Notes under the pieces: model-generated
What the model was told of the DNA's origin: nothing
Databases searched by the model: none
The model's input: only the letters and a program-made list of their open reading frames with translations
Program-made: the position numbers and the translations under genes
Shown here: positions 7,350 through 56,978 of the stretch, in pieces
How positions within the stretch are numbered: the stretch's first letter is position 1
How the letters are laid out: every line of letters starts with the position of its first letter
Origin: Minisyncoccota bacterium
GTDB taxonomy: Bacteria > Patescibacteriota > Minisyncoccia > Phycocordibacterales > SBAW01
Assembly: GCA_035546615.1 (NCBI GenBank)
Contig: DASZWM010000005.1
Span: forward strand, 1 to 64,000
Direction of reading: 5' to 3'
Length of the DNA: 64,000 nucleotides

Positions 7350-9191
7350 ATGACAAAAAGAATCCTGTACATAATTATCGGCTCGGCGCTCATACTCGTG
7401 CTGATTTTGGGCCTGTGGTTCTGGTTCTTTACGCGCGGCGGCTCGCAAGCGGCCAACCCTTCGGGGCTTTTCGGCACGAGCGGGGACGCGACGAACGCCG
7501 GCGCGGGAGCGGGAGATGACCAGGGCAACGGGCAGGCGCCCATCGGCCAGAACGCCTCGCAGGATACGGGGGGAGATATTTCATACATACCCCCGGCTTC
7601 AAACAGCAGCGCCGTATGGCTTGACGGCTCCGGCGCGGGCGGAGGCGGCGGAGGTGGAGGCGGCGGAGGCGGGGGAGGAACAGGCGGAGGAGGGGGCTCC
7701 GGCGGAGGCGGCGGGACGGGCGTGTTCTTTACCCCGACGCCTATCAACTCTTTCAACAGCTTCAACCCGGGCGGCACCGTATATATCGCGGCTCCGCAGG
7801 GCGGGGCGGGCGGCGGCTCCAGCCTTGTTAGCGGGCTTTTGGGCGTGGCCGGCGGCTGCGCGGCGAATTTTTTGCTCAGCAAGGCGGCCGGAGCGGGGGC
7901 CGGGCTTGCGGACCGCGCGCTTGGAATACTAAAAGTACAGGTAACCGACAGCTCAACGCATGACAATCAGGCGGCACAGGCGATAATCGACTGCATCGTG
8001 CGCGGTCTGGCCCGCGCCGCGATACAGCAGATAACCAACGACACCATCAACTGGATAAATTCCGGCTTCGACGGCAAACCGGCGTTCGTGCAGGATTTCA
8101 ACAAGTTCTTCAGCAACGTGGCCGACACCGCCGCAGGCAGCGTCATCCAGGGCGGCGACCTCGCGTTCCTCTGCAGCCCGTTCCAGCTCAAGGTGCGCAT
8201 CGCCATCGCGCAAAGTTACGCGCGCAAGTCCTCAGGGCCGTCATGCACTCTTACGCAAGTAGTGGGCAACGTGGAGAATTTCGTCAACGGCAATTTCGCC
8301 GAGGGCGGTTGGCCCGGGTTCCTGGAGTTCACGACCGAGCCGACCAATAACCCGTTCGGCGCATATATGTACGGCCAGCTCCTGGTCAACGGACGCATCG
8401 CCCAGGATACACGCGACGCCGAGCGCAAGATATCGCCCGGCGGCTTCCTGGCTCAGCAGAAGTGCGACCTAGACGCCAATGGCACCAATATTCAAGAGAC
8501 CTGCAAAGTGGTGACGCCCGGTTCGGTCATAGAGGACGAGCTCAGCCAGGCGACCAAGGCGAACTTGGACGGCCTACAGCTCGCCGACAGCATCGACGAC
8601 ATACTCAACGCTCTCATAAACGCAGTCGTCAACAAAGTGCTCTACCAGGGGCTTGCCAATATCGGCGGCAACGGCAGCGGCGCACTTGAAGGCTCGCAGG
8701 ACACGGTGGCGACCCAGCAGGCAAACGCGCTTCTTACCGAGGTGCAGAACCGCGTTACCGATACGCAAACCTATGCCAGCACCGAGCAGGGAAGCGTTGC
8801 CGACGTGCAGGCGGCGCAGGAGAACCTCAATACCCTTCAAAACTGCTGGCTTGGAAGCAACTCAACCAAGGCAAAAGGCAAGGCGGGCGACGCGGATAGC
8901 AAGATAGCGGACCTTGAGGCTCAGGTAACGCTGCACAATAACCGGATAACGTCGGCAAACAGCGTCATCGTGTCGCTGCAGGACATCCAGACGAAGCTGC
9001 TTAATTCCTCGACCATGTCCGACGTGCAGGCGGTTACGGCCGAGTACAATGCGCTCAAAGCGGGCGGCACCCTTATCACCTCGGCGCAGGTAACTTCGGC
9101 CCAGCAGGATCGCACGACGCTCCAGGCGCAGCTCAGCGGCGTCAATACCAATACCCAGAATGAACTTCAGCAATGTTATGCGGCAAGCTAG
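7350..9191 (+). CDS. Membrane-anchored Gly-rich envelope protein, first gene of the T4SS-like cluster. Has an N-terminal TM, a poly-Gly tract of about 30 residues, and a C-terminal coiled-coil-like Q/T/A-rich region.
   Basis: TM segment ILYIIIGSALILVLILGLWFWFF. The G tract GGGGGGGGGGGGGGTGGGGGSGGGGGTG is encoded by a GGN nucleotide repeat at approx 7630-7727. The C-terminal region has heptad-like periodicity. Its stop overlaps the next gene. Confidence 0.6.
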   Translation: MTKRILYIIIGSALILVLILGLWFWFFTRGGSQAANPSGLFGTSGDATNAGAGAGDDQGNGQAPIGQNASQDTGGDISYIPPASNSSAVWLDGSGAGGGGGGGGGGGGGGTGGGGGSGGGGGTGVFFTPTPINSFNSFNPGGTVYIAAPQGGAGGGSSLVSGLLGVAGGCAANFLLSKAAGAGAGLADRALGILKVQVTDSSTHDNQAAQAIIDCIVRGLARAAIQQITNDTINWINSGFDGKPAFVQDFNKFFSNVADTAAGSVIQGGDLAFLCSPFQLKVRIAIAQSYARKSSGPSCTLTQVVGNVENFVNGNFAEGGWPGFLEFTTEPTNNPFGAYMYGQLLVNGRIAQDTRDAERKISPGGFLAQQKCDLDANGTNIQETCKVVTPGSVIEDELSQATKANLDGLQLADSIDDILNALINAVVNKVLYQGLANIGGNGSGALEGSQDTVATQQANALLTEVQNRVTDTQTYASTEQGSVADVQAAQENLNTLQNCWLGSNSTKAKGKAGDADSKIADLEAQVTLHNNRITSANSVIVSLQDIQTKLLNSSTMSDVQAVTAEYNALKAGGTLITSAQVTSAQQDRTTLQAQLSGVNTNTQNELQQCYAAS

Positions 9192-11328
9192 CGGGGTGAA
9201 AAGCACTCTTCTGCGCCATGGCATGAAAGCCGCGGCGCTTTTGGTCGTGACAGTGCTAGTATTTTCTCCGCTAACTGAGCTTTTCCAGTCTTCTACAGCA
9301 TACGCAGCCGTAGGTGGAAACGCGGGACAACAAGAGGCATCTCGAGCACGCAGTGCTTGCGAAAGCGCAAACGCAGCGAACCACACAAATAATGATTGTA
9401 CTAAAGCAGCTAATGATGCGGCAGCAGCAGTCACTAACGGCGATGGCGGCACGGTATTTAACGCTATCGCTTCCTTTCTTGCGTATCCAATCTACATTTT
9501 CACTGTCGGACTTGGGGGGTTCGCTGCTTCTGTAGGCGGGTATCTTTTTAACGTTTCCATTTACCTTTCGCTCAGCAGCAGCGCATATGGGCTTGACTTT
9601 GTAACTGACGGCTGGGGTGCGGCTCGCGACCTGGCAAACATGTTCTTCATCCTCATCCTCATCTACATCGCTGTTACCGTCATGCTTGAGGCGGAAACGG
9701 GCCACACTATGAACGCGCTGGTACGGGTGCTGTTTATCGCGCTTATCATCAACTTCAGCTTCTTCGCAACGCGCGTAGTTATTGATGCAGGCAACTTTAC
9801 GGCGACCCAATTCTACAATCAGATAAAGGCGGTGGATAAAAATGGGCAACCTGAGGTTATTTTCGGCAGGAATGTAAAGGACCTAAGTGCGAGCGTCATG
9901 GGAGCGGTCGGGGCGCAGGACCTGATAGGCTCAAAGTCATTCGACGACTTCTCGAAAAGAAGCGGCGGATTCGGGGAATTCATAGTGCTTGTGGTCATTT
10001 ACCTTTTTCTCGGCGCGGCGTATTTCGTGCTTGCCGCTACCTTCGTTGCTACAGCAATCAAATTTATCATGCGTATCGCGGTACTATGGCTCACCATCGT
10101 CGCCTCGCCCTTGGCGCTGGTTGCGTATACCGTACCGAGCTTCGAAGGGCAGTTCAAAAGGTGGCAGGAAACTCTCATAAGCCATGCCTTCTTTCCTGTA
10201 GTATTTCTTTTTATATTCTGGCTGATAAGCATTTTTGCCGGCGGCTTAAACCTTTCCGAGTCCTTTACCAGCTACTTAAAGGTGACCGATCCGAACAGCG
10301 CTGCGAATGTTGGCAACGTATTCGGCCTCGTCTCTCTGGTCGGAAGCATTTGCATTAAACTCGGCTTCCTCGTAGCGCTCTTATATCTGGGACTGCGGGC
10401 CGCCGACCAGGTGGGGATTATGGGCGCGCAATGGGCTAATACTATGGGAAACAAGCTTTCTTTCGGCACGATAGGCTTTGCCGGCAGGAATACTGTTGGA
10501 CGCCTCGGGCTTGGGCTTTCGCGCAATGAGGGACTCCGCGATTGGGCATCCAAGAGCGCGGTCGGAAGTGCAGCATTGCGCGGGGCAGGCTTGTTAAGCA
10601 GAGGAAGCTTCGACTTGCGAAGCCTGCCCGGCGCTGGCAAGCTTAAGGGCCAGATAGGGGAGGCGGGTGGCAAGGGCGGTATTGCAAAATGGGAAGAAGA
10701 GCGCGATAAGAAGCGCGAACATAGGATTGAGGAGCTCGGCAAAGCTATAAAGGGCGACATAAAGAATGAGCGCATTGAGCAGGAAAAGTTCATAGCGAAA
10801 TATGAGCGGGATCACGGCGCTGGAAGTTATCAAAAAGACGTAGAGGAAATCTCTAAGAAGATTAGCGGCAGGGAAAAAGAGGCTAAAGCTTTGCGAGAGC
10901 AGGCAAAAACCGCTCCAGAAGCTCTCAGAAACCAGCTTCATAAGGATGCAAAAGTAATTGATGAGGACGTAAAGAACATTAAAAAAGATCTGACGGAAAT
11001 GACAGAGGCTGGCAAGAGTACGGTAAAACATACTAACCACGAGCGTTCAGAAGTACTTGCGGCTCGATTGTCCAACAAATGGAATGCGTTCCTTACCACT
11101 CCCTCCAGAGGAACTCTCAAGGGCATCGCGCACCTGACACACCACGAAAGCAAAGAGGAGAAATTGGCGAAGGCCGCAAAAGACTTTGCGAAGGACGATG
11201 AAGGCGGTGGGCACACTCCTCCGGCAGCTACTCCTCCCCCCGTAACACCTGCGCCTGATTCCGCGCCCCCAAGCGGCCACGCTCCTAAACCTGATGCTCC
11301 AGCAGGTGAACACCGCGCAGACCACTAA
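9178..11328 (+). CDS. VirB6/TrbL-like polytopic membrane protein. It has at least 6 TM helices, a charged Lys/Glu-rich cytoplasmic segment and a Pro-rich tail.
   Basis: Signal-like N-terminus followed by multiple long hydrophobic helices (e.g. FFILILIYIAVTVML, VLFIALIINFSFF, FIVLVVIYLFLGAAYFVLAATFVA, VLWLTIVASPLALVAY). The KWEEERDKKREHRIEELGK charged block and its position in the cluster are typical of TrbL/VirB6-family topology. Start taken at the internal ATG 9178; the longest ORF starts at 9160. Confidence 0.5.
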   Translation: MRQASGVKSTLLRHGMKAAALLVVTVLVFSPLTELFQSSTAYAAVGGNAGQQEASRARSACESANAANHTNNDCTKAANDAAAAVTNGDGGTVFNAIASFLAYPIYIFTVGLGGFAASVGGYLFNVSIYLSLSSSAYGLDFVTDGWGAARDLANMFFILILIYIAVTVMLEAETGHTMNALVRVLFIALIINFSFFATRVVIDAGNFTATQFYNQIKAVDKNGQPEVIFGRNVKDLSASVMGAVGAQDLIGSKSFDDFSKRSGGFGEFIVLVVIYLFLGAAYFVLAATFVATAIKFIMRIAVLWLTIVASPLALVAYTVPSFEGQFKRWQETLISHAFFPVVFLFIFWLISIFAGGLNLSESFTSYLKVTDPNSAANVGNVFGLVSLVGSICIKLGFLVALLYLGLRAADQVGIMGAQWANTMGNKLSFGTIGFAGRNTVGRLGLGLSRNEGLRDWASKSAVGSAALRGAGLLSRGSFDLRSLPGAGKLKGQIGEAGGKGGIAKWEEERDKKREHRIEELGKAIKGDIKNERIEQEKFIAKYERDHGAGSYQKDVEEISKKISGREKEAKALREQAKTAPEALRNQLHKDAKVIDEDVKNIKKDLTEMTEAGKSTVKHTNHERSEVLAARLSNKWNAFLTTPSRGTLKGIAHLTHHESKEEKLAKAAKDFAKDDEGGGHTPPAATPPPVTPAPDSAPPSGHAPKPDAPAGEHRADH

Positions 11329-22117: not shown

Positions 22118-23215
22118 ATGAAATTCGAATCCACAACTGAACAGCTCCTCTCGGCGGTTTCGCTTGCAAGCAGGTTCGTGGAAAAGCGCGCGAATCTTCC
22201 GGTGCTTGCAAGTATTCTGCTTATCGCCGAAAAAGGCCGCCTGATACTGCGCGCTACCAATCTTGAATGCGGGGTTGAAATAACCGCGCAGGCCAAAGTA
22301 CTTGAAGAGGGTATCGCGGCCATTCCGGGGTCAGTATTGGCCGGGTTCCTTGGGAATGCCCGCGGCAAGACTGTATCAGCTCAGCTTTCCGGAGGCACGC
22401 TCAAGATGGAGACGGAACGCGCTTCAGCGTCTATAAAAACCGTGCCGCATGAGGACTTTCCGATATTGCCGCAGGTAGCGGCTACTACGTCGCTTACGGT
22501 TAAAGCGAGCGACCTTTCCAAGCTTATCCGCTCGGTAGCGTATTGCGCTTCGACTTCCGCGATAAAGCCGGAGCTTCAGAGCGTGCTTATCTACGGAGAG
22601 GGCGGCAAGCTTGTGGCTGCTGCGACCGACTCATTCCGCTTAGCCGAAAAGAACGTATCGTTGCGCTCGCAAGGCTCGGTACCGCAGCTCCTGGTACCCG
22701 CGCGCAACGCAGTCGAGCTTAATCGCATACTTGAAGCCGCCTCGGGCGATGTAGAGATCTATTACAACGAGCACCAGATATCGGCCCATATCGGCTCTGT
22801 GTACTACACCAGCCGCCTCATAGACGGCTCGTTCCCGAACTACCGCCAGATAGTGCCCAAGGAGTTCGCCACGGAAGCCGTCGTGCTGCGCGAAGATATG
22901 TCAGGCGCGCTCAAATCACTTTCCCTGTTCGCGGACAAGCTGGCGCAGGTTTCACTCGCTGTAGAGCCTTCCAAGAAGGCTGTGCTGCTTACCTCGCGCA
23001 ATCCGGACGTAGGCGAGCAGGTGTCCACCTTGCGCGCCACGATATCTGGCGAAGAGGCAGCTATGAACTTCAACGGCCGCTACCTGGCAGACAGCCTCCA
23101 AGCAATAACAGGGGAGAGCGTCAGGCTTTCTTCAAACGGCCCGGGCAAGCCGCTGTTGGTCAAAGACGCCGGAGACGATTCCTTCTTCTACCTGGCAATG
23201 CCGATGAACCGCTAA
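22118..23215 (+). CDS. dnaN: DNA polymerase III beta sliding clamp.
   Basis: 365 aa with three-domain clamp architecture. Conserved N-terminus (…LLSAVSLASRFVEKRANLPVLASILL…) and C-terminal LAMPMN-type motif (YLAMPMNR). Confidence 0.9.
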   Translation: MKFESTTEQLLSAVSLASRFVEKRANLPVLASILLIAEKGRLILRATNLECGVEITAQAKVLEEGIAAIPGSVLAGFLGNARGKTVSAQLSGGTLKMETERASASIKTVPHEDFPILPQVAATTSLTVKASDLSKLIRSVAYCASTSAIKPELQSVLIYGEGGKLVAAATDSFRLAEKNVSLRSQGSVPQLLVPARNAVELNRILEAASGDVEIYYNEHQISAHIGSVYYTSRLIDGSFPNYRQIVPKEFATEAVVLREDMSGALKSLSLFADKLAQVSLAVEPSKKAVLLTSRNPDVGEQVSTLRATISGEEAAMNFNGRYLADSLQAITGESVRLSSNGPGKPLLVKDAGDDSFFYLAMPMNR

Positions 23216-23219
23216 AAAA

Positions 23220-24101
23220 ATGTCCAAAAAAGAGAATCCTATAAAAATACCAAAAAGACCAACATCTTTTGGCACTCCTGCTGAGTGTGTTCGGTGGGTT
23301 AAAAAATCCGTATATCTTATCGCTCGAGGAAGAGCTTTAAATCCAGAAAAACCAAATGAGCTAAGCTGGTTTACTATTGGAACAGGTTGTGTGGTCGCCC
23401 CCAACCGTATGAGTACTGCAGCCCATGTAATCAATGACCCCTCAAGTCTTGAAAAAACAAAACAGCATCAGTCGGGCGACCAATACTACCTCATTAGACA
23501 TGACGACGAAGGCAACTGGCACTTTAAGGTTCTCACACTAGAACTTAATAAAAATTTATTTTTATATTCTGAGACTGACCTTGGAATCATTTATCTCGAC
23601 GAAGAATTTTATCAAATAGGAGAACAGATTCTCGCGCTAAAGGACGATTATATAAGAGTTGATCAAAAATTTAGAGTGATAGGTACAGAGGTCGCTGTTT
23701 TAGGATACCCTCTTTGTAAGTTAGATTTTATAGAAAAAGATCCAAACAGGCCTCAAGTGGGGGACATATTACTCAGGGTAGACACAGGGGTTATAAACTG
23801 TCGATACAGAATAGCGGAAAATGTTTATCGTTATGAGTTTACTATGGGGTTTAACCCAGGAAATTCAGGAGGGCCTATTTTTGATTGGAGGACAGGGCAG
23901 CTGCTCTCCCTCGTGCATGGTTATAAGGCAATCCCGGTTAATATGTCTGAGCGCGTAATAACCGACGAAGTTAAAAAAAATTTAAAGATTAAAGATTATG
24001 ATGGGAAGTCATTTATCGAAGTCGTTCACGCTAACTACTCAGTGGGCTACGCTACCCCATCTTTTGTGGAGACATTCAAAATACACGGGATAGTAAAATA
24101 G
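23220..24101 (+). CDS. Trypsin-like (chymotrypsin-fold) serine protease with no signal peptide, on a low-GC inserted gene.
   Basis: Catalytic His (STAAHVIND) and Ser (GNSGGPIFDW) motifs. GC content is visibly lower than the flanks (A/T-rich codons throughout, e.g. aaaaaagagaatcctataaaaatacc). It has a hydrophilic Lys-rich N-terminus and no TM segment. Confidence 0.6.
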   Translation: MSKKENPIKIPKRPTSFGTPAECVRWVKKSVYLIARGRALNPEKPNELSWFTIGTGCVVAPNRMSTAAHVINDPSSLEKTKQHQSGDQYYLIRHDDEGNWHFKVLTLELNKNLFLYSETDLGIIYLDEEFYQIGEQILALKDDYIRVDQKFRVIGTEVAVLGYPLCKLDFIEKDPNRPQVGDILLRVDTGVINCRYRIAENVYRYEFTMGFNPGNSGGPIFDWRTGQLLSLVHGYKAIPVNMSERVITDEVKKNLKIKDYDGKSFIEVVHANYSVGYATPSFVETFKIHGIVK

Positions 24102-28584: not shown

Positions 28585-29112
28585 CTACGCGGCGTTTGTA
28601 TAGACCTCGTTAACATCATCGTTGTCCTCAAGCGCGTCGACGAGTTCGGAGAGCTTGCTGCCGTCTTCCTCGGAGATCTCGACGGTAGTTACGGGTTCGA
28701 GCTTGCCTTCGGCTCCTTTGGCGAAAGCCCATGACGCCGCGCCGGGCTGGGCGAGCGCGGAGCCATGCAAAGAAAGTATATGTTTTATTTCCTGCGCGGT
28801 GCGGTTGCGCGAGTCGGTGTAGCCTTCAATGACAAGCGCCACGCCGCCGGGGCCGTACGCCTCGTAGGAGACCGGCTCAAGCTCGCCGGTGGTCGACGCC
28901 TTGTCTATCGCGCGCTCGATATTGTCCGCCGGCATGTTCGCCGCTCGCGCTTTCTCGACGGCCGCGCGCACGCCGGGGGCGGTGCGGTCGCCCTTGGCCT
29001 TCTTAGCCTCTATAGAAATGAATCGCACGAGCTTGGAGAAAAGCTTCGCTTTCTGCGCGTCGGTCTTGCCTTTAGTATGTTTTAGTTTTGCCCACTTAGA
29101 ATGTCCGGCCAT
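28585..29112 (-). CDS. YebC/PmpR family DNA-binding regulator (short form).
   Basis: MAGHSKWAKLKHTKGKTDAQKAKLFSKL is the diagnostic YebC N-terminus. 175 aa. Adjacent to ruvC as in many bacteria. Confidence 0.8.
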   Translation of the reverse strand: MAGHSKWAKLKHTKGKTDAQKAKLFSKLVRFISIEAKKAKGDRTAPGVRAAVEKARAANMPADNIERAIDKASTTGELEPVSYEAYGPGGVALVIEGYTDSRNRTAQEIKHILSLHGSALAQPGAASWAFAKGAEGKLEPVTTVEISEEDGSKLSELVDALEDNDDVNEVYTNAA

Positions 29113-29215
29113 ATATCAAGACTATATACGAATCCCTATCTAAATTCCAAGAGATCGAACTGCTCTCCTAAAACCCTCTTTTTTAGGCTATATTTACCGC
29201 GATGTTGACATCTCC

Positions 29216-29245
29216 TTGACAGATGTAAACTTAAAGGGGTATTAT
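29216..29245 (+). promoter_or_regulatory. Sigma70-like promoter for the fic gene.
   Basis: TTGACA (29216-29221), 18-nt spacer, TATTAT (29240-29245). It is about 27 nt upstream of ATG 29273, in an AT-rich spacer. Confidence 0.4.
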
Positions 29246-29272
29246 CTTTACATCCTGTAGAGGGTAAAATAT

Positions 29273-30409
29273 ATGAAAATAGGAGAATTCATTCAGCAAC
29301 CCCAAGGTTTTAAAACCTTTGTGCCCGATAAGTTTCCTCACAAGGATTTATCAAGCGTTATATTAAATCCGCAAACCTCTCAGCTTCACGCCCGGGCCGC
29401 TTTTTTGCTTGGGAAGTTGGATGGCATCACTCAACTTCTGCCAGATTTGGATTTTTTCATCTTCATGTATGTAAGAAAAGAAGCGGCGTTCTCAAGCGAA
29501 ATAGAGGGCACAAGAGCGACAATGATTGACGCTATCAGAGCGGAAGTAGAACTTACTCGCGATCTGCCTAATGACGTGGAGAACATTCTAAAATACATTG
29601 ACGCAATGAACTATGGTCTTAAGAGACTCGAGAACTTTCCACTCTCTCTGCGCCTCATTCGAGAGGTACATAAGACCCTTCTTGAACAGACGCAAGGCGG
29701 TATAGGCAAAACACCAGGAGAGTTTAGAACTTCTCAAAATTGGATCGGGGGTGCCTCGCCCGCAACGGCACGCTTCGTACCACCCCCTGTCGCAGCTATG
29801 CATGACGCCCTAGGGGACTTAGAGAAGTTTCTACATAATAGTGCGGATATTCCACCTCTTATCAAAACCGCTCTTGCACACTCTCAGTTCGAAACAATAC
29901 ATCCTTTTCTGGATGGTAATGGCCGCACAGGTAGACTTCTCGTCACCTTTTACCTCTGCCAACAGGAAGTACTTGAACGTCCGGTATTGTATCTCTCTGC
30001 CTATTTTAAGAAGCATCGAGACACCTATTTTGATCTGCTTAACGGCTACCATAACAAAGGCGAAATAGTCCCGTGGCTGAACTTCTTTTTAGAAGGAGTG
30101 GCTGAAGTGGCAGAGGCAGCAATTAAGGTTTCTCAAGCCATTAATATCTTACGTGAGGAAGACCAAATGAAAATTCAGGCTTTTGGTAGGTCGGCTGGCG
30201 TAGCGATGAAAGTGCTAAGAGCGCTTTACAAACTTCCTATTGTAGACGTACGCAAAATTCAGGAGTTGACAGGCTATTCCAGAACAGCCGCGAACAACTT
30301 TGTGAAAAAGCTTGTGGATCTGGAGATTCTTGTTCAGCGTAATAAAAAAGCTACCTATGGGCGACAATTCGAATACGCACGCTATTTAAAACTCTTTGCA
30401 AAAGAGTAA
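29273..30409 (+). CDS. fic: Fic family protein (putative AMPylase) with an N-terminal inhibitory motif and a C-terminal winged-helix-like domain, on a low-GC gene.
   Basis: Fic active-site motif HPFLDGNGRTGR. SxxxEG inhibitory motif (AAFSSEIEGT) upstream in the same polypeptide (class II arrangement). GC is clearly lower than the flanks. Inserted between yebC and ruvB. Confidence 0.85.
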   Translation: MKIGEFIQQPQGFKTFVPDKFPHKDLSSVILNPQTSQLHARAAFLLGKLDGITQLLPDLDFFIFMYVRKEAAFSSEIEGTRATMIDAIRAEVELTRDLPNDVENILKYIDAMNYGLKRLENFPLSLRLIREVHKTLLEQTQGGIGKTPGEFRTSQNWIGGASPATARFVPPPVAAMHDALGDLEKFLHNSADIPPLIKTALAHSQFETIHPFLDGNGRTGRLLVTFYLCQQEVLERPVLYLSAYFKKHRDTYFDLLNGYHNKGEIVPWLNFFLEGVAEVAEAAIKVSQAINILREEDQMKIQAFGRSAGVAMKVLRALYKLPIVDVRKIQELTGYSRTAANNFVKKLVDLEILVQRNKKATYGRQFEYARYLKLFAKE

Positions 30410-41888: not shown

Positions 41889-41960
41889 CCTCTCGTCGTT
41901 CAATGGATAGGACGCCTCCCTCCGAAGGAGGCGATGCAGGTTCGATTCCTGCCGAGAGGA
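41889..41960 (+). tRNA. tRNA-Arg (anticodon CCG), with an unusual C1:G72 first pair.
   Basis: Acceptor CCUCUCG/CGAGAGG, D-arm GUUCAAUGGAUAGGAC, anticodon stem CCUCC/GGAGG with loop CUCCGAA, T-arm GCAGGUUCGAUUCCUGC, discriminator A. The D and T arms are near-identical to the tRNA at 49626-49697. Confidence 0.6.
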
Positions 41961-42083
41961 CAAATTTCACGAAGTGAAATGTGCCTCTCGGAGCGCGCCA
42001 ACTGCTTGGCGCGAGTAAGGAATCGAAAGGCTTTTCGTTGCTTCGTCTAATAAAGTCGAAAAGCACCCGCGACGGGAGTCGAG

Positions 42084-42105
42084 ATTCCTGCCGAGAGGAC
42101 AAATT
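42084..42105 (+). repeat. Direct repeat copy of the tRNA-Arg 3' end (T-arm + acceptor + 6 nt downstream).
   Basis: gattcctgccgagaggacaaat is identical to 41945-41966 inside and just after the tRNA. A third, degenerate copy (ttcctgccgagagaacggatttt) is at 45645-45667 upstream of the second paralog. Confidence 0.55.
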
Positions 42106-45498: not shown

Positions 45499-45715
45499 GA
45501 CGCAAGTATACTGTCTCCGCGCTGACCCTGCTTGCGGCATCCTTGCTGCCGGCATTCGGGCAGGCGTTCGTCTATTTCTGCAAACAGTCCTCCCGCCTCG
45601 GGGGCCTGGGCCGCATCCAGCGACGGCGAGAGGAGAGCCGAAGGCGTTTCCTGCCGAGAGAACGGATTTTGTGGACAAAATATTATGTAGCGAATTCTCG
45701 GGGTAGTATAGAAGA

Positions 45716-48700
45716 GTGAGCTTCAAGTGCTTGAAGAAATATTTTTTTCTCCTTCCGCTGCTTGTTTTTATAGGTCCTGCGCCCTTTGTCATGGCCGCCC
45801 CCACGTTTCAAGTGGGGCCGATTTACCTCACTACGACAAGCGCGTCAAACCAAACCTGGCCCGTGCCTTCTGACTGGAACAATGCGAGCAACATCGTGCA
45901 GGTTATTGCGGCTGGAGGAGGCGGGGGCGGAGTCGCCAGCAACACGACGGGGAGCGGCGGGGGCGGCGGGGGCGGCGGATATTCAAAATCGACAAATATT
46001 ACCCTTTCCGGTTCATCGGTAACGTATCGTCTTGCGCCCGGCGGCGCCGGCGGAGGATCGTCGGCTGCGGTTGCCGGAGGCGATGCATGGTTTAACGGCA
46101 CCACATGCGCGGCTGCCTCCGTCTGCGCGAAAGGCGGAGGGGCAGGGGGCGCAGGCACAGGCGGAGGGGGAGGCGCCGCGGGCGCAGGCGGGCCGGCTAC
46201 AGGAGGAGTCGCGTCAGGCACCGGCTCAATAAAAAATAACGGCGGCGCAGGCGGGGCAGGCACAGGTGTTTCCGCCGGCGGCGGAGGGGGCGGCGCGGGC
46301 GGCCCAAACGCCGCCGGCGGGACTGGCAATCGCACCAATGGCGGGCAAGGGGACGGCACTGCAGGCGGCGCCGGCGGGATGACAAGCCTCATCAGGGCCG
46401 CGTCTGCTGGAAGCCCAGGAACTGAATTTTCATCCTCGCCCGCGTACGGGTCCGGCGGCGGCGGCGGAGGTTCTAGATACGCAGCGGACGCGGCAGCGGG
46501 AGGCACGTACGGCGCGGGCGGCGGCGGAGCTTTTGCTGCCTCCTCCGGTACCCTCCGCCGCGGAGGAGCCGGCGCTCCCGGGCTTATTGTGATTAATTAC
46601 AGCGCACCTCTTACCGTTTCCATTACCGCGCCGACCAACAGCGGCAACGCATGTATTGGCACGCCCGGTGCATTTACCATCAGCCGCAACGGGCCGGCAA
46701 CTTGGCCTGCAGTGCCGGTTGATCTTATATACGGCGGAAGCGGGAGCACCGCGGCTGCGGGGATAGACTACTCCGCTGCTGCGACAACGGTCACCATACC
46801 GGCAAATACCATGTCTATAACGCTTCCCATTACCGCGCTTCAAAAAACATCGGGCGGCAGCACTACGCTCAAGGCGACCATAGCCGCATCCTCGGCCTAT
46901 TCCGTCGGTACGCCAGCGAGCGCCACAATAGTTATTAACAATGGGACTCCGGCGATTGAGACAGTCGCCCCCTACACGATCGCTCCTTTTGCTGCTTACC
47001 CATTGCCCTACAATGGCTACATTTATCACCAAAATGGCGGTTCCGGCTACACTAATCCATTTGCCACTCCCGCAAGCATTCTTAATACATGGATCAGCAA
47101 TAGCCCTTCGCCCCAACTATGCGGCGCCAACGGCGGTACGGCCGGTATATCGCTTCCTAGTGACACGGCACAGGGCGTATGCATGGGTCCTAATTTCTCC
47201 GGCACTGTAGCAGGCACCCGGGTTGCGGTCCTGCAGGCGGTAGCGCAGACTGCAGGCATTCCTCCGGTTAATGTCGGCCTCGATCTCACGAATGTCAAAA
47301 AAACAAATCCTTGCAACACTTCAACAACGCACTGGGCGTACGCTACTGCGCCGACACAAAATACGCCCGCCGCGACGCTTAAGGTCCCTAAATACACACC
47401 GGTCCAGTTCTCTTATCAATGTTTGCCGAACCAGAATTATGTTTGGTTTAACGCCGCATGCCAAGGCGCTTACATTATTAGCTGCCTTAGCTGGACGCTT
47501 GTTACCGATGGCGACCTCAATGTCCAGACAGCGGATCGAGCGTGGTACAAGGGCACTGAAACGGCGAACCTTATCGACAGTTCTACGCAGACATTCAGCA
47601 ATTCGCAGAGCGTTACGCTCCAATGCGGCGGCTATCAGCCTCAAGAAGGGATTCCCGCAAACGGCGGTTCTCCGCCAGCTGCATCCTCCGGCACTGCTCC
47701 TACTGGAGGCAGCTACACGGTATACGGTATGCAGAATCCTTCCTATCGGCAGCCGCAAATACAAGTTGACGTACAGACATGCTCGGATCCTACCGCTATC
47801 GTACAGGGCGGTGCGTGCGTTCCGTGCAATACGGTAACTTCGGGCAGTTATCGTTCGGGTAATACCTGCGTCTTGTATCCGCCCCCGACGGCGACTATCC
47901 AAGCCAATAACGCCGGTTTTCAAGCGGCAGACAGCAGCGGCAACAAGAACGGAAAATTAGTTTCAGTTGGGGCGGGACAGCAAGTAACTGTAGCCGCCAC
48001 GTATGCTGGCAGTACCAATCAAACTCAAAAAACCGTCTTTATTACTGCCGCAGGTTCTGGCGTATGGACCGTGCCAAGCGATTGGAACAGCGCCAATAAC
48101 AGCATCGAGGTTATAGGCGGCGGCGGCACGGCGGCTTTTACGGGAGGCCGAGGCGGCGGGGGCGGCGGCGGCGCGTATTCAAAAAAGACTAATATTTCCC
48201 TCACGCCTGGCGCGCCTGTGACATATAGGGTGGGTCAAGGTGCGGCCCAAGGGAGTCCGGCCGCTCCGGGTGACGATACTTTTTTTAACCGGACCGCCGG
48301 TTCCTCAAATACCTGCGCCGATACGGTTTCGGTATGTGCCAAGGGCGGAAACAGCGGCAATGGCAACAATGGTGGAGCTGGAGGCGCTGCGAGTGGCGGC
48401 GTCGGCACTGTTAAATATTCGGGGGGCGCCGGCGCTTACGGCGATAATAACAATTCCGGCAACGGCGGCGGCGCAGGAGGTCCCAACGGGAATGGTCAAG
48501 CGGGAGACAGTGGCGGCGCAGGGGATGCGGGGCTTGGCGGCGCGGGCAGCGGTTGTGGCAACCCACCTGCGGCTGGGGGGAATGGTGCCGAGTGGATTGC
48601 TACCAATGTGTGGAGTGGCACTGCATACACGGGCGCAACGCCGACGGGCGGCTCCGGCGGGGGCGGCGGGTGCCGCTCATCCATTGCCGCTCCGGGCGGT

Positions 48701-49552
48701 AACGGCGGTTTGTATGGCGGCGGAGGCGGCTCCGGCGGAGGCAGCCAGAGCAATGAAGGAGTCGGGGCTCAGGGCATTATCGTAATCAAATATACCTCAA
48801 CCGGCGACCCTCTTGAGGCTACCGCTATCAATTGCGACTCGGGATGCGATTCACAGGACGGTGATACTGTTAACTGTAACCTTGTTGCTCCTCCCAATCC
48901 GCCGGCGGCTCCTGATCCAAACTGTTGGCGGAAACCCGATGCGACAAAGACGTATACCTTTACGCCGGCATCAGCAGACGCGGGAAAGACGTTTGTATTT
49001 TCCGCACAGGCAAAAACTTTTAACTACATCAACTATAACGGCTACGCTACCGTGCAGGTGCGGGTATGCCCGATCGGTCAGGGAACGGACGGCAACGGCG
49101 GATGTATTGCGGACGCATGCACCAACAATATCGTATTCCCAGGCAGCCAGACGACAGTACCCGCAGGATGTACGGGTAATCCGGACAATACGTGCAGCGT
49201 GCCCACCGGCTATGCGTTCAACGGCGCGGCCTGCGTCCCTTCAGCTCCGTCGGTTCCGACCCTTAGCCAAAACTCATTTACCGCCACCCGCGTACGTATG
49301 GGGGCGGCATCGACGCTTTCATGGAACATACCGGGTATGGCGAGCGGCATTACATGCGATATCAGTCCTGCGGATAAATTGCAGAGCCCGATGCCTGCCT
49401 GGACAAGCGGCTCTACTTGGATCGGCTCGGTACAGACGACCAGCATATACGGGCCCACCAAATATACGCTCACGTGCACTAACAGCACGACCGACCCGCC
49501 GGCCACCCGCAGCGTCATCGTCAACATCATCCCTGCGTATCAGGAGATATAG
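45716..49552 (+). CDS. Giant (1278 aa) secreted glycine-rich / Cys-rich surface protein with two internally duplicated Gly-rich modules and a C-terminal domain shared with the 42132 paralog.
   Basis: Signal peptide MSFKCLKKYFFLLPLLVFIGPAPFVMAAP. Module 1 (aa about 40-300) and module 2 (aa about 770-1010) both begin W(P/T)VPSDWN…IEVIGGGG…YSK(K)TNI(T/S)L…VTYR… and end …G(A/G)(P/Q)G(L/I)IVI(N/K)Y. The C-terminus …STLSWNIPGMASGITCDISPADKLQSPMPAWTSGSTW…YTLTCTN…IPAYQEI matches the paralog. Confidence 0.7.
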   Translation: MSFKCLKKYFFLLPLLVFIGPAPFVMAAPTFQVGPIYLTTTSASNQTWPVPSDWNNASNIVQVIAAGGGGGGVASNTTGSGGGGGGGGYSKSTNITLSGSSVTYRLAPGGAGGGSSAAVAGGDAWFNGTTCAAASVCAKGGGAGGAGTGGGGGAAGAGGPATGGVASGTGSIKNNGGAGGAGTGVSAGGGGGGAGGPNAAGGTGNRTNGGQGDGTAGGAGGMTSLIRAASAGSPGTEFSSSPAYGSGGGGGGSRYAADAAAGGTYGAGGGGAFAASSGTLRRGGAGAPGLIVINYSAPLTVSITAPTNSGNACIGTPGAFTISRNGPATWPAVPVDLIYGGSGSTAAAGIDYSAAATTVTIPANTMSITLPITALQKTSGGSTTLKATIAASSAYSVGTPASATIVINNGTPAIETVAPYTIAPFAAYPLPYNGYIYHQNGGSGYTNPFATPASILNTWISNSPSPQLCGANGGTAGISLPSDTAQGVCMGPNFSGTVAGTRVAVLQAVAQTAGIPPVNVGLDLTNVKKTNPCNTSTTHWAYATAPTQNTPAATLKVPKYTPVQFSYQCLPNQNYVWFNAACQGAYIISCLSWTLVTDGDLNVQTADRAWYKGTETANLIDSSTQTFSNSQSVTLQCGGYQPQEGIPANGGSPPAASSGTAPTGGSYTVYGMQNPSYRQPQIQVDVQTCSDPTAIVQGGACVPCNTVTSGSYRSGNTCVLYPPPTATIQANNAGFQAADSSGNKNGKLVSVGAGQQVTVAATYAGSTNQTQKTVFITAAGSGVWTVPSDWNSANNSIEVIGGGGTAAFTGGRGGGGGGGAYSKKTNISLTPGAPVTYRVGQGAAQGSPAAPGDDTFFNRTAGSSNTCADTVSVCAKGGNSGNGNNGGAGGAASGGVGTVKYSGGAGAYGDNNNSGNGGGAGGPNGNGQAGDSGGAGDAGLGGAGSGCGNPPAAGGNGAEWIATNVWSGTAYTGATPTGGSGGGGGCRSSIAAPGGNGGLYGGGGGSGGGSQSNEGVGAQGIIVIKYTSTGDPLEATAINCDSGCDSQDGDTVNCNLVAPPNPPAAPDPNCWRKPDATKTYTFTPASADAGKTFVFSAQAKTFNYINYNGYATVQVRVCPIGQGTDGNGGCIADACTNNIVFPGSQTTVPAGCTGNPDNTCSVPTGYAFNGAACVPSAPSVPTLSQNSFTATRVRMGAASTLSWNIPGMASGITCDISPADKLQSPMPAWTSGSTWIGSVQTTSIYGPTKYTLTCTNSTTDPPATRSVIVNIIPAYQEI

Positions 49553-49618: not shown

Positions 49619-49625
49619 TCTAGTG

Positions 49626-49697
49626 TGCTCCCGGTAGGAATCGAACCTACATCACGAACTCCGCAAGCTCGTGTCCTATCCATTGAACGACGGGAGC
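49626..49697 (-). tRNA. tRNA-Arg (anticodon read as GCG).
   Basis: Reverse complement folds as acceptor GCUCCCG/CGGGAGC, D-arm GUUCAAUGGAUAGGAC, anticodon stem CGAGC/GUUCG with loop UUGCGGA, T-arm GUAGGUUCGAUUCCUAC, discriminator A. The isotype call rests on the loop register. Confidence 0.6.
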
Positions 49698-54446: not shown

Positions 54447-54563
54447 CAAATAGTGCGGGGCACTATTTGTGAGCCGCAGGCGCGACGGCGCCGAGGCGGG
54501 GTCGCGGAAATTTTCAGCAGAAAATTATCTGTGACCAAATAGCGGAGAATAAGATAACAGCAC

Positions 54564-56776: not shown

Positions 56777-56785
56777 CAAAAAAGA

Positions 56786-56823
56786 CAGAATAATCTGCCC
56801 TGCGGCAGATTATCTGCTTTTTG
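56786..56823 (+). terminator. Rho-independent terminator after tRNA-Leu.
   Basis: cagaataatctgcc-ctgc-ggcagattatctg stem-loop followed by ctttttg. Confidence 0.55.
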
Positions 56824-56978
56824 TGAGCCGGAGCGATGTTTCGCGAGTACGCGAAACCGCGAGGCAGGGTCGTGCGGCCGCATTCGCGACGGCGAATGCG
56901 GAACGCCTGACCAAAAGGATTTGTAGATGTGACGCAGACCCTAGATTAAGGGTATTTCCGACGGTTCCCACGGAGGTC

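Follow-up and report, generated by a model that had tools for sequence, protein, structure and literature searches.

We analyzed a 64,000-nt stretch of DNA from a Minisyncoccota bacterium (contig DASZWM010000005.1, positions 1 to 64,000; hereafter, the window), and focused on a 139-bp unit that lies directly behind its tRNA-Arg(CCG) gene and is bounded by two exact copies of the end of that gene. The reading that we favor, and in which we place about even confidence, is that these repeats are the outer arms of a degenerate, long-armed copy of a family of structured RNA elements that trail tRNAs. The family itself is a motif that matches no Rfam family and that is linked to same-strand tRNAs in Paceibacteria. 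We infer from the sequence that the unit could adopt alternative pairings and function as RNA, and that its long arms probably arose from duplication or insertion at the DNA level, and not from an integrase encoded here.

The first-pass annotation of this DNA had reported a duplicated 22-nt tRNA end at this place. The repeat is indeed exact and present twice, but it is 23 nt long (GATTCCTGCCGAGAGGACAAATT) and the earlier coordinates were one base off (the positions of the two copies, D1 and D2, are given in Table 1). In 100 dinucleotide shuffles, the chance expectation for this repeat was 0.00 matches. The tRNA has the acceptor stem CCTCTCG/CGAGAGG and a discriminator A at 41960, and its CCA is not encoded; D1 reaches 5–6 nt beyond the tRNA 3' end. 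The annotation's third, degenerate copy (D3) is also present, matching at 19 of 23 positions and containing the 16-nt core TTCCTGCCGAGAGAAC with one mismatch. This 16-mer gave three matches against 0.02 expected, and three matches occurred in 0 of 100 shuffles. An independent Logan assembly of SRR12170516 (locus L082; loci other than the window are designated by such handles throughout) was identical over the part of the tRNA that it contains, both copies, and the interval between them, and we therefore ruled out an assembly artefact specific to the window. Locus L082 was retrieved by an exact-protein look-up with ORF609, an open reading frame (ORF) downstream of D2, and it confirms the window sequence only. 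The same kind of look-up for close strains returned no record with ribosomal protein S20, and with RuvA led to a contig running the wrong way.

Both of the hairpins that the annotation had described between the repeat copies are present. What it had missed is that the tRNA end occurs once more in the 116-nt non-coding interval, as an inverted copy (I), which hairpin 2 splits into two pieces, I-a and I-b. The order of the unit is D1, hairpin 1, I-a, hairpin 2, I-b, a 55-nt core, and D2. Neither hairpin is incidental. Hairpin 1 is the apex of a palindrome made by D1 and the inverted copy (its counterpart in L002 is AAAAAAC-GAA-GTTTTT), whereas hairpin 2 belongs to a recurrent type, because CUGC-loop hairpins occupy the equivalent place in L009 and L088 and are found also in the tRNA trailers of L086 and L004. 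The predicted fold of 41981–42102 had an energy of −54.9 kcal/mol (z = −4.63), and 0 of 200 shuffles were as stable; with the tRNA attached, z was −5.47. A C-GAA-G triloop lies at 41970–41974 of the window, and C-GAA-G triloop hairpins together with the word GCGAAGCGAAA recur beside tRNAs at many loci (for example L002, L005, L006, L009, and L022). The sequence GCGAAGC appears in the older literature as an unusually stable mini-hairpin.

Table 1. Coordinates in the window of the tRNA-Arg(CCG) unit, the degenerate second unit, and the two canonical motif copies.
Feature	Position	Strand	Description
tRNA-Arg(CCG)	41889–41960 (Rfam, 61.7 bits) or 41889–41961 (ARAGORN)	+	
D1, first 23-nt copy	41944–41966	+	T-loop G57 to tRNA 3' end, plus CAAATT of the trailer
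Hairpin 1	41964–41980	+	ATTTCAC-GAA-GTGAAAT
I-a	41984–41991	+	CCTCTCGG, reverse complement of the acceptor 3' strand CCGAGAGG
Hairpin 2	41994–42013	+	CGCGCCAA-CTGC-TTGGCGCG; as RNA, CGCGCCAA-CUGC-UUGGCGCG
I-b	42018–42027	+	AGGAATCGAA, reverse complement of the T-loop and T-stem 3' strand (TTCGATTCCT); predicted to pair with the start of D2
Degenerate core	42028–42082	+	GCTTTTCG...CGAAAAGC hairpin; CCCG-CGA-CGGG hairpin with the family GCGACGG loop motif
D2, second 23-nt copy	42083–42105	+	3' strand of the predicted closing helix with I-a and I-b
Degenerate second unit	45575–45668	+	Weak motif-like hairpin 45575–45647, loop GCGACGGC, then D3 at 45646–45668
Canonical motif copy	54464–54537	+	R1 65.9 bits; 17 nt after tRNA-Arg(TCT), 27 nt before tRNA-Val(TAC)
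Canonical motif copy	56818–56913	+	R1 68 bits; 41 nt after tRNA-Leu(GAG)

The same layout was seen at other tRNAs of related genomes. We scanned 262 tRNAs from the window and 80 related loci, and defined a copy as the last 13 nt of the tRNA with at most two mismatches, no more than 400 nt downstream; matches inside a neighboring paralogous tRNA-Arg were excluded. A free copy of the tRNA end was found downstream of 13 tRNAs, and upstream of only about one. The layout was present at 13 or more tRNAs of Paceibacteria relatives, and these comprised Arg-CCG, Ser-TGA, His, Lys, and Val. The order was common to all cases: a trailer hairpin, the inverted copy, a core of ~55–100 nt, and the direct copy. 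Inverted copies ended in the T-loop complement (A-T/A-T-C-G-A-A), and direct copies began in the T-loop. A scan of metagenomes added L085, which has the full layout, and L088, which has its start and then the contig end. In a pairwise test, cores behind different tRNAs fell into common subfamilies (Arg with Ser, Lys with Ser, and Arg with His), and by eye the Arg core of L002 resembles the Val core of L054. The arms match the local tRNA, whichever core subfamily they enclose. Among these cases the tRNA-Arg(CCG) element of the window is the long-armed extreme, with an inverted copy of 8 + 10 nt and the 23-nt repeat.

Through the word GGGTCG[CG]G, which is common to the cores, we found a conserved motif, ~92 nt long, that stands behind many tRNAs; an approximate consensus is GAG-GCC-P1 hairpin-GGC-GG-GGUCGCGA-P2 hairpin-UGUGACCA. 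When 24 copies were aligned (A4, made with MAFFT and RNAalifold), the alignment contained 28 base pairs, 19 of them with compensatory double changes; on the tRNA strand one G-U pair was invariant (24/24) and a second was G-U in 20 of the 24 copies. We then represented the motif as a covariance model, R1, whose core hallmark is the P1 and P2 helices with the invariant GGGGUCGCG...UGUGACC. A search of 1.3 Mb of Paceibacteria DNA with the model gave 57 matches; 55 of these followed a tRNA on the same strand at a distance of no more than 350 nt, with a modal gap of 38–42 nt. In the 53 matches that were aligned, 95.8% of cells were paired (72.5% in shuffled alignments) and double changes occurred in 25 of the 28 pairs, whereas sliding the partner columns by 1–3 positions gave pairing of 31–46%. 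This alignment was fitted to R1 and is biased towards the structure, but the independent MAFFT/RNAalifold result agrees with it. The compensatory changes, together with the conserved G-U pair and the bias towards one strand, argue for a family that acts as RNA, made from the tRNA strand. The long-armed copies in L009, L054, L002, L014, and L037 were themselves R1 matches; thus, we treat the bracketed elements and the canonical motif as one family. Permissive scans of Rfam 15 (E up to 1 or 5) found no family for the window, the motif copies, the bracketed elements, or six motif loci, and gave only tRNAs plus weak matches far below gathering scores. A full-text search of the literature turned up no account of such a tRNA-trailer motif from the candidate phyla radiation (CPR).

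Canonical copies have shorter arms, but these too correspond to the tRNA. The motif opens with 7–10 nt that are reverse-complementary to tRNA positions ~70–73 and the first trailer bases, and they track the tRNA or lineage (GGAC with GTCC, GCAC with GTGC, CACTAGAA with TTCTAGTG, and CACACGTG with CACGTGTG). The mean length of the I:D1 helix was 8.7 bp, compared to 6.1 bp when permuted, a value reached in 0 of 2000 permutations. For I:D2 the mean was 5.85 compared to 5.20, and 0 of 2000 permutations reached it, although the effect is small. A short direct repeat of the tRNA/trailer junction follows the motif, such as CAAATAG after the tRNA-Arg(TCT) copy of the window or ACTAGAAA in L020. The arms of that window copy are D1 CACAAATAG, I CTATTTGTG, and the D2 just given. 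The two canonical copies of the window are 36% identical to each other; overall, motif identity averaged 0.64 within genomes and 0.57 between them, and L037 contains identical tandem copies. These two copies fall within 54448–54545 and 56778–56920 of the window. The first takes up the spacer that separates tRNA-Arg(TCT) from tRNA-Val(TAC), and this arrangement is kept in L004, L035, L042, L049, and L041.

We also scanned viral contigs with a 16-mer of the motif. Of the 19 loci obtained, one gave a strong R1 match (L090) and one a marginal match (L106, E = 0.009). Locus L090 (2900–3319 of IMG/VR contig 3300033463_005745, predicted to be viral) is an array whose bracketed units have arms complementary to the T-loop (AGGGATTTGAA) and tails in which AAATCCCTCCC is repeated, and one unit scored 58.9 bits with R1; ARAGORN called no tRNA in this stretch.

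We compared the window unit with locus L002. Its synteny is like that of the window: rpsT, tRNA-Arg(CCG), the element, an lnt remnant, an ORF1278 orthologue, tRNA-Arg(GCG), orf156, and an aldo/keto reductase. The L002 element has the GAA-loop apex hairpin, an inverted copy of the acceptor strand, an internal hairpin, and CAGGAATCGAA, and its core matches R1 with E = 6e-6. Furthermore, I has changed in step with the tRNA acceptor, which reads CCAAGAGG with TCTCTTGG in L002 and CCGAGAGG with CCTCTCGG in the window. The window unit shares with the R1 family its place directly behind a tRNA, a 5' arm complementary to the tRNA end, and a direct repeat after the core. What it lacks is the P1/P2 core with the invariant sequence, of which the GCGACGG loop motif alone remains. 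We concluded that the window copy has apparently degenerated while retaining its arms, its hairpins, and this loop motif. In L002 the lnt gene gave a tblastn match to only the N-terminal 109 amino acids (9031–9357), which abuts the tRNA-trailing element; D2, ORF609, and most of lnt were probably lost from L002 by a deletion.

A second relative, L003, appears to show the locus in its empty state, a comparison that the first-pass annotation had recommended. Here a homologue of ORF609 (53% amino acid identity) starts ~50 nt after tRNA-Arg(CCG), with nothing between them. The L003 flank scored 11.5 against the window flank that follows D2 and 1.5 against the flank that follows D1, and the higher score is modestly supported (shuffles averaged 4.6, with a maximum of 12.5). 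The 139-bp unit can be regarded as an insertion, relative to L003, that is bracketed by the repeat.

D3 appears to be the end of a second, decayed unit, one that does not adjoin a tRNA. The segment preceding it was the best R1 match in 41–50 kb of the window (E = 0.23), and the unit is placed in the divergent intergenic region between lnt and ORF1278. The homologous intergenic region of L002 has no motif-like segment and no D3; the distance from a shared GTATACTGTCTCCG to the start codon is ~85 nt in L002 versus ~200 nt in the window. The fold around D3 was no better than that of shuffles (z = 0.17).

If the unit acts as RNA, alternative pairing would be the most parsimonious mechanism: in a read-through transcript from the tRNA, I would pair either back onto the 3' portion of the tRNA (D1) or forward onto D2. 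Pairing of I with D2 would close a 15-bp helix around the core and leave the tRNA free to fold; this closing helix has the sequence of the tRNA acceptor and T stems. A switch between the I:D1 and I:D2 states might couple to tRNA 3' maturation, to termination or read-through, or to the release of a stable trailer RNA. A stronger form of this idea is that the elements constitute an unrecognized class of tRNA-coupled RNA, in which the trailer RNA would read the 3' end of its own tRNA by pairing and then switch to a decoy copy, and so would either gate 3' maturation or termination, or excise and propagate without a protein encoded in cis. We regard this stronger form as unlikely.

Several observations weigh against the reading that we favor. 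Its core had no R1 match by score (cmsearch with filters off, E = 10 for 41978–42074), and no significant sequence similarity to other cores. The 23/23 identity of D1 and D2 extends over trailer bases that are not part of the tRNA; therefore selection at the RNA level is insufficient by itself, and a recent event at the DNA level (duplication, conversion, or recombination) is indicated. In most cases a terminator-like hairpin separates the motif from the tRNA, so that transcription of the element is putative. Lastly, neither D3 nor the D2 of the Val element in L055 (diverged, beside a perfect 21-nt inverted copy) was copied from an adjacent tRNA, suggesting that tRNA-end copies can move with an element in the style of a mobile element with att-like sites. 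Given its architecture, its position, and its orthology with the L002 element on the one hand, and an E value of 10 on the other, we consider the window unit a degenerate relative of the family and not a member by score. Duplication or recombination of DNA at tRNA ends also operates in these genomes, as indicated by the identity of trailer bases, the empty site, the arrays in L030, L031, L037, and L090, and the repeat in L015.

In L015 (8039–8999, minus strand) an exact 25-nt repeat, consisting of the tRNA-Arg(CCG) 3' end plus AAATCTTTT (9 nt), surrounds an insert of ~890 bp with a single 202-amino-acid ORF that has no Pfam family and its own terminator, and that resembles a gene cassette at a tRNA end. 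Short tandem arrays with a 39-nt period occur in L030 (9571–9721) and L031 (8902–9012); they repeat the final 18 nt of tRNA-Arg(CCG) followed by a spacer of 21 nt, without an inverted copy or core. In most relatives tRNA-Arg(CCG) and tRNA-Arg(GCG) are neighbors, in either order and in either orientation with respect to ruvA. The convergent pair is 7.7 kb apart in the window, 4.4 kb in L002, 7.4 kb in L010, and 0.22 kb in L005, and the interval looks like a hot spot of rearrangement or insertion.

The cores of attachment (att) sites in tRNA genes typically start in the T-loop and run past the tRNA end. The first-pass annotation had read the repeats as such sites, and their extent from the T-loop into the trailer, together with the empty site in L003, gives that proposal partial support. 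In its most defensible version, which we hold to be a serious alternative though less likely than not, a miniature non-autonomous integrative element with an attP-like site derived from the tRNA-Arg end would have used an integrase encoded elsewhere; D1 and D2 would be the attL and attR cores, and D3 the relic of an older or relocated event. An excised site would then join GAGAGGACAAATT to GTGCATAAACAGCC, and the circle junction would join GGGAGTCGA to GATTCC...AAATT-TCACGAAG. Such an element could account for the 25-nt repeat around the one-ORF insert of L015, for the tandem arrays of tRNA-Arg(CCG) 3' ends, for D3 and the L055 Val D2, which seem to travel with an element, and for the variation of the convergent tRNA-Arg interval from 0.22 to 7.7 kb among relatives. 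The 89% identity of ORF1278 to its L002 orthologue, versus about 73–77% for RuvA and S20, and the presence of sequence-related cores behind different tRNA species point in the same direction. However, Pfam scans of the large ORFs in 22–64 kb of the window found no integrase, recombinase, transposase, or mobility gene; they returned housekeeping genes, ORF609 (without a family), Lnt, and a Gly_rich_2 protein only. No integrase was seen in the L015 insert, nor in L083 and L087, the two metagenome loci where a 21-mer of the repeat matched outside a tRNA, probably by chance. The 21-mer had 0 matches in 2.9 million viral contigs, so an attP on a virus was not found. Cargo is likewise lacking: the 116 bp between D1 and D2 are non-coding, and the 3.5 kb between D2 and D3 contain ORF609 and lnt only. 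A unit of 116–139 bp is very small for a recombining circle, and integration does not explain why an inverted copy is present or why, in L002, this copy has changed together with the tRNA. The recurrent, covarying layout, including short-armed canonical copies with the three-part arrangement and lineage-specific trailer bases, is what selection on RNA structure predicts.

The repeats could instead be a functionless scar, left when a local tandem or inverted duplication, through replication slippage or template switching at the palindromic T-arm/trailer hairpin, copied the tRNA end. The palindrome of D1, hairpin 1, and I has the trailer hairpin at its center, as fold-back template switching would produce, and both the degenerate core of the window and the identical tandem copies in L037 would be unsurprising. 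We nonetheless think a neutral origin quite improbable, since the layout stands behind at least 13 tRNAs of five amino acid specificities in different genomes, has been kept in L002 (RuvA about 73% identical) with I altered in step with the tRNA, and in the window combines 23/23 identity of D1 and D2 with a decayed core and a fold more stable than its shuffles (z as above). The annotation had also suggested that the repeats bound a segmental duplication that created the paralogous surface-protein genes ORF609 and ORF1278. It is true that ORF609 begins 27 nt after D2 and ORF1278 about 48 nt after D3, and the two glycine-rich proteins are paralogous; but at 28–38% identity between them any neutral flanks should be unrecognizable, and the upstream regions could not be aligned beyond the repeat. 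Moreover, L003 has its ORF609 homologue without D2, and L002 has its ORF1278 orthologue (89% amino acid identity) without D3. We rejected this explanation as extremely improbable.

Four other candidates were set aside. An invertible I–D2 segment was rejected because core-versus-core scores were no better in reverse orientation. A decayed tandem duplicate of the tRNA, or an intron in its T-loop, does not fit an inverted left arm (AATCGAA, not TTCGATT) behind a first tRNA that is complete. A repeat derived from a miniature inverted-repeat transposable element (MITE) or an insertion sequence is not supported, because the arms vary with the neighboring tRNA, the repeat is 23 nt, and the canonical copies of the window have the low mutual identity reported above. 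Group I introns of Patescibacteria tRNAs are >200 nt long and interrupt the anticodon loop at position 35/36 (PMC13011429). They are found in the same phylum and likewise add a structured RNA to tRNA genes, but the element here follows a complete tRNA, has a core too small for such an intron, and matched no Rfam intron.

Comparison with known systems returned partial likenesses. The attL and attR sites of prophages and islands that use tRNA-targeted tyrosine integrases share the direct repeat that starts in the T-loop and passes the gene end, a variable locus, and an empty site in a relative. They differ in that here we saw no integrase or cargo, only 116 bp between the repeats, an internal inverted copy, and a covarying motif behind many tRNAs. 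Plant mitochondrial t-elements and the MALAT1 mascRNA are also partial tRNA mimics beside another RNA, where tRNA-processing enzymes could set the ends. In our case, the mimic is a continuous duplex of inverted and direct copies of the neighboring tRNA end, without a T-loop, and its likeness to a tRNA is one of acceptor and T-stem sequence. The 3' external transcribed spacer (3'ETS) RNAs of tRNAs, such as 3'ETS-leuZ of E. coli, are functional or structured RNAs encoded in a trailer and co-transcribed with the tRNA, but they are short and unstructured, and lack tRNA-end complementarity, a multi-hairpin fold, and a repeat of the tRNA end. Repetitive extragenic palindromes and bacterial interspersed mosaic elements (REP/BIME), MITE-like repeats, and integron attC sites resemble the family as small multi-copy hairpins behind genes, with inverted-repeat ends and tandem arrays (as in L037 and L090). 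Unlike them, the arms here follow the upstream tRNA, the linkage to same-strand tRNAs is strict, and no cognate transposase or integrase was seen; the conserved G-U pair favors hairpins of RNA over hairpins of DNA.

The genes that flank the unit are a Mur ligase, ruvA, rpsT, the tRNA, ORF609, lnt, ORF1278, and a convergent tRNA-Arg(GCG) at 49625–49697. ORF609 has no Pfam family, and ORF1278 is glycine-rich with a Gly_rich_2 domain. By its RuvA relatives, the window belongs to a Paceibacteria/Adlerbacteria-like group of the CPR/Patescibacteria; among the species-representative genomes scanned, the best identity was 72%. The lnt gene (apolipoprotein N-acyltransferase) is full-length in this CPR genome (43936–45500, minus strand; true start near 45500). 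ORF1278 (45716–49552) aligned with L002 5113–8115 at 89% identity over 1005 amino acids, compared to ~73% for RuvA and ~77% for S20, which suggests recent lateral exchange or unusual constraint. Two 1-kb bins, 23001–24000 and 29001–30000, had a G+C content of 0.43–0.44 versus about 0.57 elsewhere; the latter overlaps a Fic/DOC-family gene (29273–30409) and may be foreign DNA.

Repeats of tRNA 3' ends are routinely read as the boundaries of prophages or islands, and here a small structured element gives the same signature; automatic calling of att sites in CPR genomes could therefore misassign islands. If the element is mobile, it would represent a new kind of miniature element that targets tRNAs. 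If instead it acts as RNA, it would offer a new handle on tRNA maturation and termination in minimal genomes. Were the elements indeed a distinct tRNA-coupled RNA class, they could, in the reduced genomes of CPR bacteria, stand in for a step of tRNA processing or quality control that otherwise depends on a protein.

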